Source: an uncultured Methanosarcinaceae archaeon (GTDB lineage Archaea; Halobacteriota; Methanosarcinia; Methanosarcinales; Methanosarcinaceae). From it: 64,000 bases of DNA. Shown here in pieces: positions 49 to 9,350 of this stretch. Position numbers and translations under genes: made by a program. Every line of letters begins with the position of its first letter. Within the stretch, counting starts at the first letter, position 1. The stretch lies in assembly GCA_963833425.1 (NCBI GenBank), contig CAWHXP010000011.1, forward strand, positions 1-64,000, written 5' to 3'. The notes under the pieces were generated by a model. It saw nothing but the letters and a program-made list of their open reading frames with translations, did no database searches and was not told the origin of the DNA.

Positions 49-64
49 ATTCACAATTGTGAAT
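49..64. promoter_or_regulatory. Perfect 16-bp palindrome ATTCACAATTGTGAAT, candidate operator upstream of larE-like gene
   Basis: Seen directly; immediately 5' of TATA-like TTATAAAATA (69-78); same core recurs at 3363, 3961, 4141, 7726. Confidence 0.7.
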
Positions 65-136
65 GATGTTATAAAATATAAAGTTTTTGAAACTTGCAGA
101 AGAGAACTGTGAAAATCAAAAGGTCGGTATTCATTC

Positions 137-933
137 ATGGACAAAGAAAATATATGCGACGCATTGCTCAAAGAGCTATCAGGATTTGATAGCTTACTCA
201 TTTCATATTCTGGGGGCATAGACAGCACTTTACTCGCAATATTTGCACAAAAGGCACTACATGAGGGAGCCAAATGTATACTTTTTGATGCGCCTATAGT
301 CTCAAGAAGAGCATTTAATGATTCGGAGGAAATCGCACGTAAATTCGGTTTATCTTATAGCATACTGCCATTTCCCATAATGGAAAACGAAGAATTCAGG
401 AAAAATAGCCCCAACCGTTACTACATTTGCAAAAAGCAGTCTGCCAAAATTCTACGAGACCAAGCTGAAAAGCTGGCTATTTCAAATATAGCTGATGGAA
501 TTAATGCTTCCGATCTAAATGAATACCGTCCTGGACTTCAAGCAAGCAATGAGGAGAAGATCATTCATCCTTTTCTTTCATTAAAAATTCAAAAAACTGA
601 ATAAGACAAATGGCTCATGACTGCGGTTTTGATTTCTGGAACAAACCGTCATCTTCATGTCTAGCATCAAGAATTCCATATGGTGAGGAAATAACGACTG
701 AGAAGTTGCAAATGGTGGAAAAAGCCGAAAATATAATTCAAGATCTAGGTTTTTCCAATCTGCGTATACGGTTGTATGGTAAAATTGCACGAATCGAGTT
801 GATGCCTGAAGAATTCGAAAAAGCATTAAACATTAGACATAGAATCGTGGAGTTATTGCAAGAATGCGGCTTTTCTTATGTTACTCTCGACCTGAAAGGA
901 TATAGAAGCGGTAGTATGGATGAAATACTATGA
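137..933 (+). pseudogene. larE: LarE-like ATP-dependent sulfur transferase (PP-loop), split by a 1-nt frameshift near 600
   Basis: SYSGGIDS PP-loop, DGINASDLNEYRPG, KPSSSCLASRIPYG, YVTLDLKGYRSGSMDE; ORFs 137-604 and 610-933 join by restoring one A (KTE-IRQ-MAHD). Confidence 0.8.
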
Positions 934-1244
934 AAATTGAAGATTCTATCACTGATTCCCAGCTATTTCAATGTCTTATTATGTGGGCAATGCTGCAACA
1001 AGTTTAATTCCTGACTAGTCATGAATTCGATTAACGAACACAATCGACAATATCGTACTATTGGAATACCTTGCTGATGATTGTCAGTATTGTGAATTTG
1101 CTGTATTCATTATATTAAGAATTTTGAAAAATCAATGATTTTCACAGATCATCAATATTCCATCTATAAGGATATATGAAATTCAGAAATTAACGAAATC
1201 CTTAATTAATTTTAATCTGGTAGAAATAACTATGACTGATATTT

Positions 1245-2201
1245 TCAGGTGGACTGTTGATCTTGTATTTGTTCTTTGAATCGATCCCAGTTCCAGGGCT
1301 CATCAAGGATATTGACACTAACTTTTTCTATTCCGCCAACGTTTAGAACTTTTCGCTTGACTTGGTCCTTGAGGTATTCTGCCATAGGACAGATATTTGT
1401 TGTCAACACAAGGTTTACGTCTACATTTGCTCCGTCCACAATTACTTCTTTAACCATCCCCATCTTGACAATATCTATTCCGACCTCAGGGTCGATTACT
1501 TGTTTCAGCTGGGAATAAATTTGCTCATCTTTTTTTGGAACTGTTTTTTGTAAAAGTATCCTGTGCAAAGGTGTATATTTTTGTGCATGAGCCTGTTCTT
1601 CTAGGCGGCTTAACCTATCAAGCATCTGGCTTACTAAAGAAAGCATGGGATCGGGTAACTTATTGTGATCCAGTTGACCTACAGATATGGACGGCTGTGG
1701 CTCTGCAATTCTGGCAGGTACTCCCACAACAGTAGCTTCAGGCGGAACTGATCGGATCACAACCGAGCCTGCACCTACTTTAGCACCTCTTCCAATCGTA
1801 ATTGGCCCAAGTACTATTGCACCTGAACCGAGAACCACGTCTTTTTCAACAGTAGGATGGCGCTTTATTCTATCAAGAGCTGTTCCGCCAAGTACAACTC
1901 CCATGTATATGAGAACATCATCACCTACTTCAGCAGTTTCTCCAATTACCACTCCGGATCCATGATCGATAAACACTCGTTTTCCTAGTTTTGCTCCAGG
2001 ATGGATCTCAATTCCGGTAAGCGTTCTGGAAATATGTGAGAGCAAACGAGCAAGAAAAAAAAAGTTTTTTTCCCAGAGAAAGTGAGATAATCGATGGATC
2101 CAGACGGCATGTAGTCCTGGATAACAGCACAGTACCTCCAGAGTAGACCTTGCTGCAGGATCTTTTTCAAAAACTGTCCTTATATCTTCTCTTATTTCCA
2201 T
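1245..2201 (-). CDS. cysE: Serine O-acetyltransferase with C-terminal DUF59 (SufT/MIP18-like) domain
   Basis: [37 protein letters not shown] hexapeptide core; C-terminal [14 protein letters not shown]...TTNICP...PWNWDR. Confidence 0.9.
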
Positions 2202-2233
2202 TTAGAGCCTCCCAATATCAATTGTCAAACAGA

Positions 2234-3160
2234 TCAATCAAATAGATCGGTACTAAGATAACGTTCTCCCGTATCTGGTAAGATTACAACAATCATTTTT
2301 CCACTCATTTCTTCTCTGGAAGCAACTTGCAGTGCCGCATACATAGCTGCACCTGAAGATATGCCTGCAAGTATGCCTTCGTTCTTTGCTAATTTTTTGG
2401 CCGTAGCAGCGGCATTGTCTCCTGTTACCTTGATGATCTCGTCAACCAAGTCAAGCCGGAGTACATCCGGAATGAACCCTGCACCGATTCCCTGGATCTT
2501 ATGGGGCCCCGGACTTCCGCCGCTAAGAATTGGAGACTCGGCAGGTTCAACTGCAACAACCTTAAAAGTAGGTTTCCTTTTTTTGATGACGCTTGCAACA
2601 CCTGTAATGGTTCCCCCTGTTCCCACACCTGCTACAAGCACATCTACCTTGCCGTCAGTATCTGTCCAGATTTCCTCGCCAGTCGTTCTACGGTGGACTT
2701 CCGGATTTGCAGGGTTCTGGAATTGTTGAGGTATGAAGTAGAGATTAGGATCTTCTGCAGCCATGTGTTCTGCTTTACTGACCGCTCCTTTCATCCCTTC
2801 ACTTCCAGGTGTCAGGATGATATCTGCTCCCAGGGCCTTCAGCAGTTTTCTCCTTTCGATAGTCATCGTCTCAGGCATGACCAATATAAGCTTATAGCCA
2901 CGGGCAGCGCATACGCCTGCAAGTGCTATACCAGTGTTGCCGCTAGTTGGTTCGACTATGATAGTATCAGTTTTGATTTTCCCTTCGCGTTCGGTTTTTT
3001 CGATCATTGCCAATCCAATTCTGTCCTTCACACTTCCCAGGGGGTTAAAAAACTCTACTTTAACTATCACATCAGCATGTAGACCTTTTGTTATGCGGTT
3101 TAACCGGACAAGCGGTGTGTTACCTATTGTCCCTGTTATGTCGGAGTATATTCGTCCCAC
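2234..3160 (-). CDS. cysK: Cysteine synthase A (O-acetylserine sulfhydrylase)
   Basis: [12 protein letters not shown] lysine, [33 protein letters not shown]. Confidence 0.95.
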
Positions 3161-3362
3161 AATATCACTTTTTTGTTGCAGTTTTCTCTATGTTCATGTA
3201 ATTTAATTCGTTTCAGACTATATTATAAATTGCCATGTAAGCATTTTTTTTCACTCAAATTTTTCTTATGTTTAATCAGACTTGATCTTCAGCATTTAAA
3301 TTTGCCTAAAATTTTGCAATTCAGAACTATCTTGGACATTAACATAAAGCAATTTAAAATCA

Positions 3363-3376
3363 ATCACTATTGTGAA
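3363..3376. promoter_or_regulatory. Operator-like near-palindrome ATCACTATTGTGAA in cysK upstream region
   Basis: 12/14 match to TTCACAATTGTGAA; lies just downstream (on - strand) of a TATA-like run at ~3389-3398. Confidence 0.6.
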
Positions 3377-3582
3377 GTTATCTTATCTTAAGTATATAGT
3401 TCTTGATGAGTTTCTGTACCTGTGAGAATTAAAACGAGAACCTTCTTATTATTTTCTGGATTTTGAATTGATCGAAGTCAGTTTCCAGTGGAATTAATGA
3501 TAAATTTTGGCGATCCTAGATGATATTAAAAAGTTTCTACAATGAGTTAAACTACGATATTGAACCATGAAAAAATAAGTTT

Positions 3583-3951
3583 TTATTTTTTAGCTTTCAT
3601 TGTTTTATTGTCTGCCCTTTCGGGACCGCAATTGTTATTGCAGTTATTCTCAATTTCTCTTGCATTTACACAGATCTCACATATCCTTACAACAAAGTCG
3701 TCGACTTTATTGTCTATCAAATCCTGAGCAAGTTTTTCTATCAATTCCTTTGTTTCACCCTGAAATTCGATCCTGTAACCTCTTTTTCCCGAAATATACT
3801 GGGAAACTGCCGAAGGCGCAATCCCCAGCAACTTTGCAGAAGTTGCCTGTGACTGTCCTTTGTTTACAAGTTCTATTGAAAGACTAGCCCTTATTGCGGG
3901 GACGAGATCCCACACGACCTTCTGACATGGAGTTTCCATAATCACCATCAA
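3583..3951 (-). CDS. Small HTH transcriptional regulator with Cys-rich C-terminus
   Basis: PCQKVVWDLVPAIRA, SQATSAKLLGIAPSAVSQYISGKRG HTH; CEIC-x9-C-x3-C tail; divergent from iscS; true start may be a few codons downstream. Confidence 0.85.
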   Translation of the reverse strand: MMVIMETPCQKVVWDLVPAIRASLSIELVNKGQSQATSAKLLGIAPSAVSQYISGKRGYRIEFQGETKELIEKLAQDLIDNKVDDFVVRICEICVNAREIENNCNNNCGPERADNKTMKAKK

Positions 3952-3960
3952 ACTTGAAGC

Positions 3961-3974
3961 TTCACAATAGTGAA
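3961..3974. promoter_or_regulatory. Operator TTCACAATAGTGAA directly upstream of the HTH regulator
   Basis: 13/14 match to the palindrome; 10 bp from ORF start, suggests autoregulation. Confidence 0.65.
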
Positions 3975-4140
3975 TGAATATATTGCATATCTGTATATAT
4001 TATTATCAGTGTAAAAAATAATAAAAACACTATTGATCTGTGAATTGATGATTCATCTAAGAACTGCAAGTTTTTAAAAGTTAGTTGTTTTATCTAAGTA
4101 TCTTATGATAAAACTTAAATATTTACAATCATTATATCTA

Positions 4141-4154
4141 TTCACAATTGTGAA
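4141..4154. promoter_or_regulatory. Perfect palindrome TTCACAATTGTGAA upstream of iscS
   Basis: Seen directly; 9 bp before the ATG at 4164 and downstream of TATA-like TTAAATATT (~4116). Confidence 0.7.
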
Positions 4155-4163
4155 GGTACATAT

Positions 4164-5348
4164 ATGACAGTTGAAAATACGATCATATACATGGATAATT
4201 CTGCTACGACTCCTGTAAGAAAAGAAGTTGCTGAAGAGATGACCCCCTACGTAACAGAATATTTTGGAAATCCGTCCTCTATATATGATCTGGGTAAAAC
4301 TTCAAAAAATGCTGTAGGAAAAGCAAGACAGAGGGTTGCAGATGCTATAGGTGCTGAAGAGAACGAGATTTACTTTACATCAGGAGGTACGGAGTCCGAT
4401 AACTGGGCGATAAAGGGGATAGCCTTTGCAAACAGGAACAAGGGGAAACACATAATCACCTCCTCTATCGAACACCATGCAGTACTGCACGCCTGTGAAT
4501 GGCTGGAAGGAGAGGGATTTGAGGTAACATACCTTCCTGTAGATAAATATGGACTGTTATCACCTGAGTATTTGAAGAATGCAATCAGGAATGATACTAT
4601 ACTCATTTCCATAATGCTTGCAAATAATGAAATCGGGACAATTCAGCCTGTCGAAGAAATCGGAAAAATTGCGAGAAAGAACGGGATATATTTCCACACT
4701 GATGCTGTTCAGGCAATAGGCCACATCCCTATAGATGTTCAAAAAATGAATATTGACCTCCTATCCCTCTCAGGACATAAGTTTCAAGGACCTAAAGGAT
4801 GCGGGGTACTCTACATAAAAACAGGAACAAAAATAGAAACGCTTATTCATGGTGGGAATCAGGAAAGAAAACGCAGGGCAGGGACCGAGAATGTCCACGC
4901 TATTGTAGGCCTTGGGAAGGCTATAGAGCTTGCAACAGGCGAAATTGAAGACTCAAATAAAACCCTGGTTGAGATGAGAGAGCGCCTGATTAAAGGCCTT
5001 CTTAAGATTCCCCAAACCCATCTCAACGGGCATCCCACACAAAGGCTTGCAAACAACGTAAATGTAACTTTTGAATATATAGAAGGAGAATCTCTTCTTC
5101 TTTTCTTAAATGCTAAAGGAATTTTAGCATCCACTGGAAGCGCATGTAACTCTTCTTCTCTTGAACCTTCGCATGTGCTTACAGCCTGTGGAGTCCCGCA
5201 TGAGATAGTGCACGGTTCACTGAGGTTGAGCCTCAGAAGGATGAATACCGAAAAAGACGTGGATAGAGTACTTGAGGTTCTTCCAGAAATAGTTCAGAAG
5301 CTGAGAAATATATCTCCATTGACTCCACATGAATACAGTACCATTTGA
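4164..5348 (+). CDS. iscS: Cysteine desulfurase IscS/NifS
   Basis: YMDNSATT, FTSGGTESDN, SSIEHHAV, SGHKFQGPKG, STGSACNS catalytic Cys. Confidence 0.95.
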   Translation: MTVENTIIYMDNSATTPVRKEVAEEMTPYVTEYFGNPSSIYDLGKTSKNAVGKARQRVADAIGAEENEIYFTSGGTESDNWAIKGIAFANRNKGKHIITSSIEHHAVLHACEWLEGEGFEVTYLPVDKYGLLSPEYLKNAIRNDTILISIMLANNEIGTIQPVEEIGKIARKNGIYFHTDAVQAIGHIPIDVQKMNIDLLSLSGHKFQGPKGCGVLYIKTGTKIETLIHGGNQERKRRAGTENVHAIVGLGKAIELATGEIEDSNKTLVEMRERLIKGLLKIPQTHLNGHPTQRLANNVNVTFEYIEGESLLLFLNAKGILASTGSACNSSSLEPSHVLTACGVPHEIVHGSLRLSLRRMNTEKDVDRVLEVLPEIVQKLRNISPLTPHEYSTI

Positions 5349-5458
5349 AATCGTGAATAGGTGTAGAGAAAAAAAGAGGAATCACAGAGGAACCTTGAGT
5401 CAGAAAAGCCCGATTAGAATAATTAGATAATTGAAAAATAGCAACTAGAGGAAAACTC

Positions 5459-5848
5459 ATGGATTACAGCGCTAAAGTGATAGACCATTGTATAAATCCA
5501 AGAAATATTGGAAGTATTGAGAACTGTGATGGGATTGGAGAAGTTGGAAATGCTAAGTGTGGAGACATAATGAAGATATTTCTCAAAATAGAGGAAGATC
5601 AGATTGTAGATGCAAAGTTTCAGACTTTTGGATGTGGGGCTGCAATTGCATCAAGCAGTATGGCTACCGAGCTCATTAAAGGGAAAAAACTGGAAGAAGC
5701 CTGGAGGCTTTCAAATAAAGCAGTTGCAGAAGCGCTTGATGGATTACCCCCTATAAAAATGCATTGTTCAATGCTGGCGGAGGAAGCAATCCATGAGGCG
5801 ATTAACGATTATCTCAAGAAAAAAGGACTTGAGCCCTGGACAGAATGA
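5459..5848 (+). CDS. iscU: Fe-S scaffold IscU/NifU
   Basis: KCGD, FQTFGCGAAIASSS, LPPIKMHCS; follows iscS. Confidence 0.95.
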   Translation: MDYSAKVIDHCINPRNIGSIENCDGIGEVGNAKCGDIMKIFLKIEEDQIVDAKFQTFGCGAAIASSSMATELIKGKKLEEAWRLSNKAVAEALDGLPPIKMHCSMLAEEAIHEAINDYLKKKGLEPWTE

Positions 5849-5908
5849 TTTGACACAATAACACATATTTTTTAAATATACAGCTAATTGAAATCCTGGA
5901 GGATACAA

Positions 5909-6640
5909 ATGGAGAAAAATTCCACTGAAAAATATATCCGGCAGATAATGCTTTTTGGGGAAAATGGCAAAGAAAAACTCAGGCAAGCAAGGGTATTTAT
6001 CGCAGGGACAGGAGGGTTAGGATCCCCTATCTTAACATATCTCGCAGTTGCAGGTGTTGGGCAAATAATAATTGCAGATTTTGACATAGTAGATCCCAGC
6101 AATCTGAACAGACAATATCTCCATCATGAAAAAGATATCGGGAAAGAGAAGATAAAATCTGCAGAAGAAAAACTTATTTCTCTGAATCCGGAAATAAGGG
6201 TCGAAACAATAAAAGGAAAAATAACAGATGAGAATTCGGTCTCTATAGTTCCTCCATGTGATCTGATTATAGATGCACTGGATAATTTTGATACGAGGCA
6301 TGCTTTGAATAAGCTTGCAGTTGAAAGAAAAATACCCCTTATTCACGGAGCAATTTCAGGGTATAGAGGCCAGGTAACAACGATAATTCCTAGTAAAACC
6401 CCCTGCCTCTATTGTATATTCCCTAGCTCATTTAAAAAAGAAGTATTTCCGGTACTCGGAACAACCCCAGGAGTAATCGGCACAATTCAGGCAAATGAAG
6501 AGATTAAATATATAACATGACAAGGAAAGCTTCTGGAGAACCGCCTCTTGTTGTGGGATGGTCTTTCATGCTCTTTTAGTGAACTGAATGTCAATAAGAC
6601 AGAAAATTGTCCTGTATGTGGAATTAATGAAAGAAAGTAA
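5909..6640 (+). pseudogene. ThiF/MoeB/HesA-family adenylyltransferase with one in-frame TGA (6518-6520)
   Basis: GTGGLGS, SNLNRQ, DALDN, PCLYC; frame continues past TGA to CPVCG and TAA at 6638-6640; GGAGG before ATG 5909. Confidence 0.8.
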
Positions 6641-6705
6641 TAAATTGGAAAATACATTCTCTGCAGATTTATTCCTGAGTTTGCGAACAAGAGTGTTACG
6701 GAAAA

Positions 6706-7586
6706 TTGGGAATTGTGGAAGCGATAAAAAGACTTAAAGAAAAAAGAATACAATATTTATTGCTTATTTTTATATACATAAGGGCATTCAGGAAGTTGGG
6801 GATTTTATTATGGATTTCCTTTCCTCGTAAGGCAGAAGTAAATTCAAAAGCTAAGGTTAAGTTTTTGAGGTGTTCATTTTCATGGCAGAGTCGGCATCAG
6901 TTATTTCTCCTAAGAAGCTGGTCCTTTTATCTGTTTCTGATGCAGTCTGTCAATTGCAGATATGATCACTTCAAAATCTCTCAAAAATGAGAAAAAAATT
7001 ATGAATAGGTTATCATATGCTATGCAAATAGTTCGGTCACAGTAAAAGTGGAATCAAATACTCCTGCAAATCGGAAAATGCAATAAGTGCAGTAAATTAT
7101 ATTGAAAGCAGGGAAATTATTTTCATCCCAGATAAAAATCTGCGAGGACTTGTATCACTTCATACTAACAAAAATATCCAAATCTGCCCGGATTTTTCCA
7201 TGTTCATGATGATGGTAGTGATGAGTGTATAAGGAATTGCAAAAATGTATCCTAAAGCAGAATTTCTTGCACATCCTGAATGCATGCCTGAAGTCCAAAG
7301 TCTTGTAAACAGCATTCAGTACCTTCGAAATTGTAATGGAAGCTGGGAAATCAGATTCTACTAAATTTATAATCGGAACCAAAAGAAAATCGTTCAAAAT
7401 TTGAAAGGAAATTATTTGGATAAAAAATTTTATCTGGCTTCAGAGAAAGCTTTTTGCTATAATATTGGGAAAACGACTCTTGAATCAATCTTGAATAGTC
7501 TTCAAAATATAGAATCCAAAATATATGTTTCTGAGCATATAATAGTGAGAGCCAAAAAAGCTCCCGATAGGATACTCGAGATTTAG
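6706..7586 (+). pseudogene. nadA: Degraded quinolinate synthase A
   Basis: Fragments GVHF-MAESASVISPKKLVL, IIFIPDKNL, AEFLAHPECMPEV across several frameshifts. Confidence 0.75.
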
Positions 7587-7705
7587 CTAAAATTGAAGTT
7601 GAAGAAAGTGCATAATCCTTTCCTTTTTTTCGTGAATTTTTTTTTCTAAATCATCTACTTCTTATCCCCTTTTTCTCAGATCAAGAGATAAATATTTATA
7701 CTAAC

Positions 7706-7739
7706 GTCACAAATGCGATAATGCTATCACATATGTGAA
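7706..7739. promoter_or_regulatory. Tandem operator-like sites GTCACAAATGCGAT (7706-7719) and ATCACATATGTGAA (7726-7739) upstream of metX
   Basis: Second site matches TCAC-N4-GTGAA; flanked by TATA-like sequences at ~7691 and ~7747. Confidence 0.55.
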
Positions 7740-7929
7740 TATATCTTATAAATGAATATTTGACGAATGGCTATGCTCCCAGCTGTACCCAGGAACTAAG
7801 CGAATTTGATTCTCAATTGTGACTTGGAAAAAATTGAAGTCCGAATATTTTCGATATAAAACATGCACTTTTCAAGGTCTGAACATGGAAATTTTGGTCA
7901 ATATCCCCTCTATTAAAATTTTTTCCCTG

Positions 7930-9350
7930 GAAAAAAAAGGCCAAAATTTAGGAATAGTTCGTTCAATGAACTACAAAATCCCTGGAATTTTTAACCTTGA
8001 GAGTGGAAAAACTCTTTCCGATATCAGGATTGAATATGAAATCTATGGAAGGATGAATGCTGACAAAAGCAATGTCATTCTCATCTGCCATGCCTTAACA
8101 GGTGATGCCCACGCTGCAGGGTTTCATAAAGGCGATAAAAAAACCAGGCCGATGGAATATAATAATAGGCCCAAACAAAGCATTTAACACTGAGAAATAC
8201 TGCATAGTCTGTTCAAAAATACTCGGGGGTTGTAAGGGATCCACAGGTCCTTCTTCCATAGATCCTGACACAGGAAAGCACTACGGGATATCCTTTCCTG
8301 TTATTACTATAGCAGATATGGTTAATGCCCAGAAGAAATTAATCGAACACCTAGGAGTAAAACAACTTTATGCAGTTGCAGGTGGCTCAATGGGCGGGAT
8401 GCTGGTGCTCCAATGGACAGTGAGCTATCCTAATATGGTAAAAAAGGCTATCGCCATAGCCGCTACTGCCTCCTCAACTCCACAACAAATCGCATTCGGA
8501 GCAATAGAAAGGAAAGCAATAATTGATGACCCTAAATGGAATGAAGGAAATTACTACGGAAAAGAAATACCTGGACAAGGACTTGCACTTGCACGTATGG
8601 TAGGGCATATTACATACCTCAGCGACGCTTCAATGCAAAAAAAAGTTGGAAGAGTTCAACAGGACGAAGAAGGTATAGATCGCTCACCGAATTTTCAGGT
8701 CGAAAGCTACCTGAATCATCAAGGAAATACCTTTACAAAGCGTTTTGACGCGAATTCGTACCTATATATTACAAAAAGCGTTGATTTTTTTGACCTATCA
8801 AAGAATGGATCCCTCATAGAGGGCCTTGCTGGAGTTACTGCAAAGTACCTTGTGATTTCAATAACATCAGACTGGCTTTATCCTGCTTATCAATCTCAGG
8901 AAATCGTATCTGCTCTTACAGCGAATGGGATTGATGCAAAATACGACGAACTCAGGTCACAATACGGACATGATGCCTTCTTGCTCGAAGAAGGACAGAT
9001 GAATTACCTCATTAAGTGCTTCCTATCGCAGATTTTTGTGCATGACATCATGAACCAAAATTTTTACCCAGTTTCCAGAGATGAAACAATAGAAAACGCA
9101 TCTATACTCATGGTAAAAAAGAAAGTGAACTATCTACCTGTCGTATCAGACTTACAAAAGCAGTTGCCTGCAAAATAACTGAATTAAACGAGATAATCAC
9201 ACGTGACGTTAGATATGTGCACGGAGACGATAAAATTGAGACTGCATCATCAATAATGGAAAAATACTCAATTTCAGCACTTCCAGTCATAGACTTCGAA
9301 AACCACATAATAGGTATGGTTACAAGTGAAAGTATAAGTACTCTTATTTG
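7930..9350 (+). pseudogene. metX: Homoserine O-acetyltransferase with C-terminal CBS pair, frameshifted
   Basis: [21 protein letters not shown] nucleophile, RFDANSY, GHDAFLLE; frameshift in A-run near 8140 and disruption near 9150 in the CBS region; start approximate. Confidence 0.8.

Follow-up and report, generated by a model that had tools for sequence, protein, structure and literature searches.

IscR of Escherichia coli is a small, autoregulated repressor of the Rrf2 family, encoded beside iscS-iscU, that carries a [2Fe-2S] cluster on three closely spaced cysteines and a histidine in its C-terminal part. CymR of Bacillus subtilis belongs to the same family, acts together with CysK, through which O-acetylserine or cysteine is signalled, and represses genes for cysteine and methionine supply. 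SurR of the Thermococcales is a sulfur-response regulator with a CxxC switch, which recognizes the motif GTT-N3-AAC and controls hydrogenase and sulfur-reduction genes. To our knowledge, the archaeal transcription factors for which both operator and regulon are known are few. Here we describe a 14-bp palindrome, TTCACAATTGTGAA, and a cysteine-rich helix-turn-helix (HTH) protein encoded among genes for sulfur and iron-sulfur (Fe-S) metabolism in a 64-kb stretch of archaeal DNA, hereafter the window. Contig 11 of a Methanosarcina genome (assembly of 4.07 Mb in 21 contigs, rated 80% complete) begins with this window. An original prediction, made from the letters of the window, had proposed that the palindrome marks five promoters and is bound by the HTH protein. 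We estimate at roughly 70% the probability that this protein is an XRE-like repressor that acts as a dimer, controls its own gene and governs a regulon for the supply of sulfur and Fe-S, with the palindrome as its operator, a reading based on sequence comparison; the figure was lowered because of one genome, G109, which is discussed below.

The locus resembles each of the described systems in part. As with IscR, the candidate regulator is small and, as we propose, autoregulated, its gene lies beside iscS-iscU, putative operators (below simply operators) are found at the isc promoter, and its cysteines could report on Fe-S supply. Unlike IscR, it has an XRE-like HTH and no Rrf2 domain (PF02082) in the Pfam scan, the genome's single Rrf2 match lying elsewhere (C8:196097, 33 bits), so that membership in Rrf2 was rejected. 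Its conserved cysteines, a C-x2-C-x9-C series plus the N-terminal C9, do not form an IscR-type ligand set. The regulon outlined here also differs in including cysteine and homocysteine synthesis, SepCysS and larE, and in having no comparable site in the 3.7-kb neighbourhood of sufB, where the best candidate has three mismatches. CymR is matched by the cysteine and methionine supply targets and by cysK, which adjoins the regulator gene here; unlike CymR, however, the protein has an unrelated fold, and operator and regulator persist at loci without cysK. With SurR it shares the archaeal setting, the tie to sulfur status and a C-x2-C pair, but it gave no Pfam match to an ArsR/HTH_20-type winged helix (the SurR type) at E ≤ 0.01, and its targets are cysteine, methionine and ISC genes. 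By position and targets, the role would be like that of IscR or CymR, played from an unrelated fold. Since the protein is not of the Rrf2 family, the earlier wording 'non-Rrf2 functional analogue of IscR/CymR' describes its role fairly.

Within the window, the dyad TCAC-N4-GTGA was found five times, always between positions 51 and 7738, against a mean of 0.48 in 100 dinucleotide shuffles; five or more matches were reached in 0 of the 100. A re-scan returned all five dyads at the coordinates of the original prediction, each of them between open reading frames (ORFs; 0/5 inside), and confirmed its remark that the motif is not seen in the remaining 56 kb. The two weaker copies mentioned there also exist, with four and two mismatches to the consensus TTCACAATTGTGAA. 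The gene names proposed for larE, cysE, cysK, iscS, iscU and metX agree with matches to library profiles. The features of the locus are as follows:

50..63, operator, exact TTCACAATTGTGAA, 74 nt before the larE ATG (137)
137..933, plus strand, larE-type ATP-dependent sulfur transferase (NCBIfam TIGR00268 on both halves)
1245..2201, minus strand, cysE, serine O-acetyltransferase with a C-terminal FeS_assembly_P domain (TIGR01172, 240 bits; PF01883, 4.8e-17)
2234..3160, minus strand, cysK, cysteine synthase A (TIGR01139, 473.6 bits)
3363..3376, operator ATCACTATTGTGAA, 204 nt before cysK, after the HTH gene
3583..3951, minus strand, candidate regulator, a protein of 122 aa (as called) with an XRE-like HTH
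3961..3974, operator TTCACAATAGTGAA at the HTH gene promoter, between the TATA-like box AATATATT (3977-3984, minus strand) and ATG 3939, 22 nt before the latter
4141..4154, operator, exact TTCACAATTGTGAA, ending 10 nt before the iscS ATG, after the TATA-like box CTTAAATA (4114-4121)
4164..5348, plus strand, iscS/nifS-type cysteine desulfurase (TIGR03402, 613.8 bits)
5459..5848, plus strand, iscU/nifU-type Fe-S scaffold (TIGR03419, 220 bits)
5888..6640, plus strand, thiF/moeB-type adenylyltransferase (PF00899, 2.9e-68)
6720..7583, plus strand, nadA pseudogene with 10 in-frame stops (tblastn match to NadA of L102)
7706..7739, decayed operator pair before metX, 7706-7719 (4 mismatches) and 7726-7739 (ATCACATATGTGAA), starts 20 nt apart
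7810..7823, weak operator copy TTCTCAATTGTGAC, 2 mismatches
7819..9178, plus strand, metX, homoserine O-acetyltransferase with a CBS domain (NF001209 on both pieces)

The whole genome of the window contains 35 TCAC-N4-GTGA dyads, 21 of them with a pure A/T spacer, and 18 of these 21 lie outside ORFs of at least 120 aa. Counted as copies of TTCACAATTGTGAA, five exact and 12 one-mismatch sites were obtained, 17 in total, compared with 0.2 and 2.4 (2.6) expected from the mean of five second-order Markov genomes; at two mismatches the excess fades (46 versus 34.6). The dyads of the window exceed the shuffles, and the 14-mers of the genome exceed the Markov genomes; equal frequency in random intergenic DNA was among the grounds for refutation named by the original prediction. 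Ten of the 17 best sites lie at iscS, cysK, larE, metX, SepCysS or HTH genes. Those in the window (at most one mismatch) belong to larE, the HTH gene and iscS; contig 5 carries sites at metX, iscS and a second HTH gene, 85% identical to that of the window, and contig 8 at cysK and larE. Two SepCysS genes have a nearby site, one of them followed by an O-acetylhomoserine sulfhydrylase gene. Three further sites surround a Methanosarcina-only orphan gene for a 156-aa protein beside pdxS, one lies upstream of a truncated Prismane/CO-dehydrogenase-like gene, and three have no informative neighbour (C3:247588, C3:593137, C8:210298; one-mismatch). The A/T-spacer dyads at C2:263230, C3:193513, C6:32704, C7:237361 and C15:91388, located in ORFs or near unrelated genes, were set aside as chance occurrences.

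The motif and the regulon are real and conserved. Eighty loci were fetched through the HTH protein and scanned for the window genes and for the dyad, of which only TCAC and GTGA were demanded. At least one dyad was present in 43 of the 45 Methanosarcina-type loci (L016-L060), in a recurrent layout: 10-11 nt before iscS, between the HTH gene and cysK (exact 14-mer, about 130-330 nt before cysK), as two near-exact sites upstream of metX whose spacing is 19-21 nt, and some 70 nt upstream of larE (L023, L033), a distance similar to that in the window. The Methanomicrobiales loci (L061-L073 and L085), in which the protein is 53-65% identical, had the dyad in 13 of 14 cases; it mostly lies 54-60 nt upstream of the HTH start, next to iscSU-thiF, larE or metX. 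Lack of conservation in relatives, which would also have contradicted the original prediction, was not seen, the dyad being kept at loci of two orders. The spacer AATT was retained at 93-97% per position, although the search did not demand it, and the exact 14-mer accounted for 65 of 119 Methanosarcina sites and 22 of 29 Methanomicrobiales sites. In a complete 2.1-Mb Methanomicrobiales chromosome, all six exact copies (reversed control, 0) fall inside 16.2 kb around the HTH gene. This island comprises iscS-iscU divergent from a PAPS-reductase/desulfurase fusion, nadA, thiN with an AIR-synthase-like gene, an HTH-larE-fdhD unit, SepCysS, O-acetylhomoserine sulfhydrylase, metX, thiI, and DUF1890/DUF1894 divergent from another desulfurase. 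The six copies themselves are placed at iscSU, nadA, thiN, HTH-larE-fdhD, SepCysS-sulfhydrylase-metX and a cysteine desulfurase. The complete genome of M. hadiensis carries 14 exact and three one-mismatch copies (control, 1). They are found at two iscS/HTH/cysK loci and two SepCysS genes, at the sulfhydrylase and the orphan gene, at an HdrD-like gene, in a NifH-like neighbourhood, and at larE, which is divergent from ThiS-like-DUF1890-DUF1894.

The linkage of protein and palindrome was followed in a sample of 121 genomes of the class, with homologues accepted at E ≤ 1e-15. The exact 14-mer was found in 38 genomes (reversed control, 2) and a homologue in 96. Where coordinates of the 14-mer were listed and a homologue was present, it lay within 5 kb of the HTH gene in 22 of 30 positive genomes, a tally that leaves out seven positive genomes without listed coordinates and G109, which has no orthologue. 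The palindrome also changes with the protein. Homologues of the Methanospirillaceae type have TTCAC-N3-GTGAA 49-58 nt before the start in 5 of 5 cases, and among 15 distant loci (Micrarchaeota, Thermoplasmatota and an uncultured Methanosarcinales record) palindromes of the TTAAC-N4-GTTAA type (TTAAC-AATT-GTTAA) were detected in eight and none in seven. Hybrid palindromes occur in L071 and L093, and several of the distant HTH genes again lie beside iscS-iscU (L087, L092). Autoregulated factors typically show this behaviour, in which the operator varies along with the protein but keeps its place at the promoter of the regulator gene.

For 23 Methanosarcina loci, the DNA between iscS and the HTH gene was compared side by side. 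Nearly all of them (the exceptions are L030 and L053) share one order on the iscS side: a CTTAAATA box, an imperfect site that adjoins it, the exact site and, after 10-11 nt, the start codon. The window has lost the imperfect site. On the HTH side, a GATATATT-type box precedes the operator, about 20-22 nt and the start ATGGAAACT. The operator is present there in all 23 loci, as the weaker, conserved TTCTCAATTGTAAA in most species and as TTCACAATTGTGAT in the second paralogue type. An operator within the core promoter of the regulator's own gene was thus observed in the window, in 23/23 Methanosarcina loci and in 13/14 Methanomicrobiales loci. Autoregulation had been part of the original prediction; the placement of the dyad between the TATA box and the HTH start points to it, and from this placement we infer the regulation itself. 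Archaeal repressors usually bind downstream of the TATA box, near the start, and repression fits because the sites at iscS and the HTH gene lie downstream of theirs; we regard both repression and autoregulation as well-grounded proposals. Contigs of a related strain (95-99% alike) from four metatranscriptome libraries of one study cover cysE, the HTH gene, iscS, iscU and metX, with ends near 3947-3950 and a beginning at 4136. Such contigs cannot show starts, strand or level, and DNA may be present, which makes their ends at most weak hints; stretches that they leave uncovered carry no information. As a separate observation, several Methanosarcina species (L016, L018, L050) show expansions of short tandem repeats, of differing unit, between the two operators, and the iscS-HTH spacer therefore varies from ~230 to 500 nt with both promoter cores fixed.

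In the mechanism that we propose, two copies of the protein would occupy TTCACAATTGTGAA, one per TTCAC half-site (centres 9 bp apart), and the bound dimer, at or just downstream of the TATA box, would block transcription. Its targets would be its own gene, cysteine synthesis (cysK-cysE, SepCysS), homocysteine synthesis (metX, O-acetylhomoserine sulfhydrylase) and the transfer of cysteine sulfur (iscS-iscU-thiF, larE). The cysteines C9, C91, C94 and C104 could hold an Fe-S cluster or a metal, or act as a thiol switch, such that the regulon would open when the supply of sulfur or Fe-S falls. We infer this sensing step more weakly than the rest.

The protein itself probably starts at its fifth codon (ATG 3939; 118 aa), as suggested by the family alignment. 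The source records of its close homologues (77-97% identical) call them transcriptional regulators of Methanosarcina species; in M. acetivorans the orthologue is encoded between cysK and iscS2. A search of 1.84 billion representatives returned 815 relatives at E ≤ 0.001 and 94 at 1e-10. The closest sequence and fold signals are those of XRE/Cro-C1 repressors (HTH_3), with which the protein would share a dimeric state and a short palindrome whose half-sites are centred about 9-10 bp from each other. The Pfam scan (E ≤ 0.01) gave only sub-threshold matches to HTH_3 and P22_Cro, the former at 17.0 bits versus a cut-off of 23, and in this the protein differs from that group. The family profile matched only XRE/Cro-type chains among solved structures (a lambda-repressor-like chain, E 8e-7), and the nearest Atlas clusters consist of small HTH_3 regulators from archaea that bear no specific name, with HTH_3 on 38-68% of members. 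The AlphaFold2 model (pLDDT 84.3, pTM 0.73) has five helices, with the helix-turn-helix at residues 35-54. Foldseek found no match to it in the PDB at E ≤ 0.001, the best being XRE regulators (E 0.27-0.45), and a wide VIA-align search returned no whole-protein relative (best Z 5.2, in the range that its notes call a common arrangement). A long N-terminal helix that starts at a conserved cysteine and a C-terminal cysteine helix that matches no solved structure further distinguish the protein from the XRE/Cro-C1 group.

Several observations weigh against the repressor reading, and they bear on the sensor, the identity of the binding protein, the direction of control and the statistics in turn. 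The C-terminus reads C-E-I-C-x9-C-x3-C (C91, C94, C104, C108), as the original prediction had stated. The last of these cysteines, however, is absent from the same-genome paralogue and from Methanomicrobiales, and the conserved set is C9, C91, C94 and C104. These four are invariant in full-length orthologues that share the operator, in contrast to C108, and would provide the four conserved ligand residues expected of Fe-S- or metal-sensing regulators; in a 65-member alignment they are kept at 89%, 86%, 92% and 71%, respectively. The family has a further, distal C-x2-C (68% and 51%) that is absent from Methanosarcina. In the model, C9 opens helix 1, and C91, C94 and C104 are on helix 5 (86-107), which is poorly predicted after residue 100. 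Since these three share one long, partly ill-predicted helix, a joint metal site can be proposed only tentatively, and some Micrarchaeota homologues lack C91 and C94. The protein may accordingly bind the palindrome with its cysteines holding structural zinc, the signal coming from a metabolite or a partner, e.g., O-acetylserine or cysteine through CysK, as in CymR. The C-x2-C ... C-x2-C spacing of the wider family is typical of zinc sites, the cysteine set differs between clades, and cysK adjoins the HTH gene in Methanosarcina. We nevertheless consider this unlikely, given that Methanomicrobiales loci without cysK keep both regulator and operator and that C9, C91, C94 and C104 are invariant in the operator-sharing orthologues despite the loss of the distal C-x2-C.

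The identity of the binding protein is questioned by the class survey. A clean presence/absence correlation of the protein with the exact 14-mer failed (96/121 versus 38/121), probably owing to variation of the operator. In many genomes a homologue of ~50% identity is accompanied by no exact 14-mer; in genus g5 the protein is present in 8/8 genomes and the 14-mer in 0/8. Eight of the 30 genomes tallied above have 14-mers far from the HTH gene. The most serious case is G109, a Methanosarcina genome (99% complete, 10 contigs) with seven exact 14-mers and ten core 12-mers (control, 0), located at SepCysS-sulfhydrylase, the orphan gene and the Prismane-like gene. This genome shows an orthologue neither of the HTH protein nor of this iscS or cysK, and the family is represented there by a single, 38%-identical paralogue next to nre, with no such palindrome in the 300 nt upstream. 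The locus may be unassembled in G109, the paralogue may serve instead, or another factor may bind the motif. Two further genomes of this genus, G047 and G095, have core 12-mers next to the HTH gene and no exact 14-mer; G035 shows neither orthologue nor site. Binding by some other transcription factor, with the HTH gene merely a member of the regulon, would account for G109 and for the distant sites. It is nonetheless quite improbable, in view of the palindrome variants (N4, N3 and TTAAC type) that track the HTH homologues across phyla directly before their genes, and no other regulator gene recurs beside sites in the annotated loci. The orphan gene cannot explain the Methanomicrobiales sites, being confined to Methanosarcina. 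The claim of the original prediction that the HTH protein binds the dyad is thus supported by comparison (regulon sites, linkage over two orders, co-variation) and qualified by the sites of G109; the protein very probably binds the palindrome. The nre-linked paralogues form a second family branch (38% identical, with the distal C-x2-C) directly before archaeal nre (L121:1507-1863 in G109), and the corresponding stretch of the window's genome (G000 contig 7:138810-139077) is full of stop codons.

With regard to the direction of control, neither the position of the cysK site, about 200 nt upstream of the gene, nor that of the larE site, ~70 nt before the start and upstream of a TATA-like run, is on its own an indication of repression. 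They would also fit an activator, or to a protein that represses some promoters and activates others. This is hardly likely when set against the iscS and HTH sites, which lie downstream of the TATA box about 10-22 nt from the start in nearly all 23 loci, with only L030 and L053 differing at iscS. As for the statistics, the looser pattern TTCAC-N4-GTGAA with at most one mismatch gave six matches in the window, where the shuffles average 2.6 and reach six in 4 of 100 cases, which is less telling; the sixth match, at 4486 inside iscS, looks like chance. The paralogous loci within the window's genome are, moreover, not independent. That the dyad is an RNA hairpin of 5' leaders, for which a stem of 4-7 bp is possible, or a chance or duplicated sequence without function, as the paralogous copies might suggest, can be dismissed as highly improbable, because the RNA folds are weak (-2.9 to -5.4 kcal/mol, z-scores -0.25 to -2.8), the sequence is conserved including the loop with no compensatory change, and the dyad stands before non-homologous genes in two orders.

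In the openly readable literature searched, no description of the motif, the protein or the regulon was found. The passages on regulator, transcription and promoter in papers on the ISC system of M. acetivorans name no regulator, and the portions available of PMC10500019, PMC12068725 and PMC10846266 mention none. The results point to an undescribed archaeal sulfur regulator. They supply a 14-bp operator, a four-cysteine candidate regulator and a target list common to two orders (iscSU, larE, SepCysS, O-acetylhomoserine sulfhydrylase/metX and DUF1890/DUF1894), to which cysKE is added in Methanosarcina and nadA in Methanomicrobiales. The control of sulfur assimilation and Fe-S assembly in methanogens is not covered in the literature searched, and a regulon of this kind could explain the choice between cysteine-dependent ISC and sulfide-dependent routes. 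It also attaches the orphan 156-aa protein, DUF1890/DUF1894 and the Prismane-like protein to sulfur metabolism, and can be tested directly in genetically tractable Methanosarcina. More speculatively, the protein could be the founding member of an undescribed archaeal family, XRE-like, in which one cysteine opens helix 1 and a further helix carries C-x2-C-x9-C, and which senses Fe-S cluster or sulfane-sulfur status through these cysteines. As an independent counterpart of IscR and CymR, such a family might couple the synthesis of cysteine (tRNA-dependent and free routes) and homocysteine with ISC assembly in a single feedback loop, and its operator would have co-evolved with it from Methanosarcinales and Methanomicrobiales as far as Thermoplasmatota and DPANN Micrarchaeota; we hold this to be conceivable and put it forward tentatively.

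Some of the genes beside the operators deserve mention in their own right. The orphan 156-aa protein occurs in Methanosarcina only (52 clusters), ends in S-Y-C-C and has no Pfam family; its AlphaFold2 model (pLDDT 49.6) was too poor for a fold search, and all Atlas leads stayed below 0.9. Its gene (L004:4011-4481, minus strand, on G000 contig 16; L110:1764-2231; L125:3815-4288) has palindromes on both flanks in three genomes, next to SepCysS or pdxS. The Prismane/CO-dehydrogenase-family gene has an operator about 135-140 nt upstream in two Methanosarcina genomes (L002:2059-3204, minus strand, site 3344; L126:498-2510, minus strand, site 2645); the copy in the window's genome is cut short and continues into a fragment of an ABC-ATPase, and a piece of an IS6 transposase lies close by. 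DUF1890 and DUF1894 bear the operator in both orders (L107 of M. hadiensis; L102:17571-18337 of Methanomicrobiales), preceded by a ThiS-like gene in Methanosarcina, and are candidates for sulfur-transfer functions. In Methanomicrobiales, an 880-aa fusion of a PAPS-reductase-like domain with a class-V desulfurase (L102:2423-5062, plus strand) is separated from the divergent iscSU by one operator. Exact palindromes in M. hadiensis also stand beside NifH-like, nitrogenase-component-1-like and Nitro_FeMo-Co genes (L108, L110, L113) and an HdrD-like gene (L112), and the regulon may extend to nitrogenase-like or redox enzymes.

Finally, the window appears to hold a damaged copy of the locus. The larE gene is broken by a 1-nt deletion at 601 (compared with the intact paralogue in L003), thiF has an in-frame TGA at 6518-6520 with no indel against its paralogue, and metX is disrupted by one additional nucleotide in an A-run at 8137 and by the loss of 37 nt at 9151, as judged from the paralogue and the RNA-library contigs. 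In the contigs of the related strain, the additional base at 8137 is absent and 38 letters are present at 9151; the homopolymer lesion at 8137 may be an assembly error. Together with the decayed metX operators, the lesions in larE, thiF and metX point to a decaying paralogous locus. The cysE product, through its fusion to FeS_assembly_P (SufT/DUF59-like), joins serine acetyltransferase and Fe-S assembly in a single polypeptide. The dead nadA is recognizable from a Methanomicrobiales NadA (L102), which aligns over residues 2-302 of 303 in a single frame (tblastn, E 9e-24). An intact nadA occupies the same place in relatives, and the nadA gene of Methanomicrobiales bears the operator.

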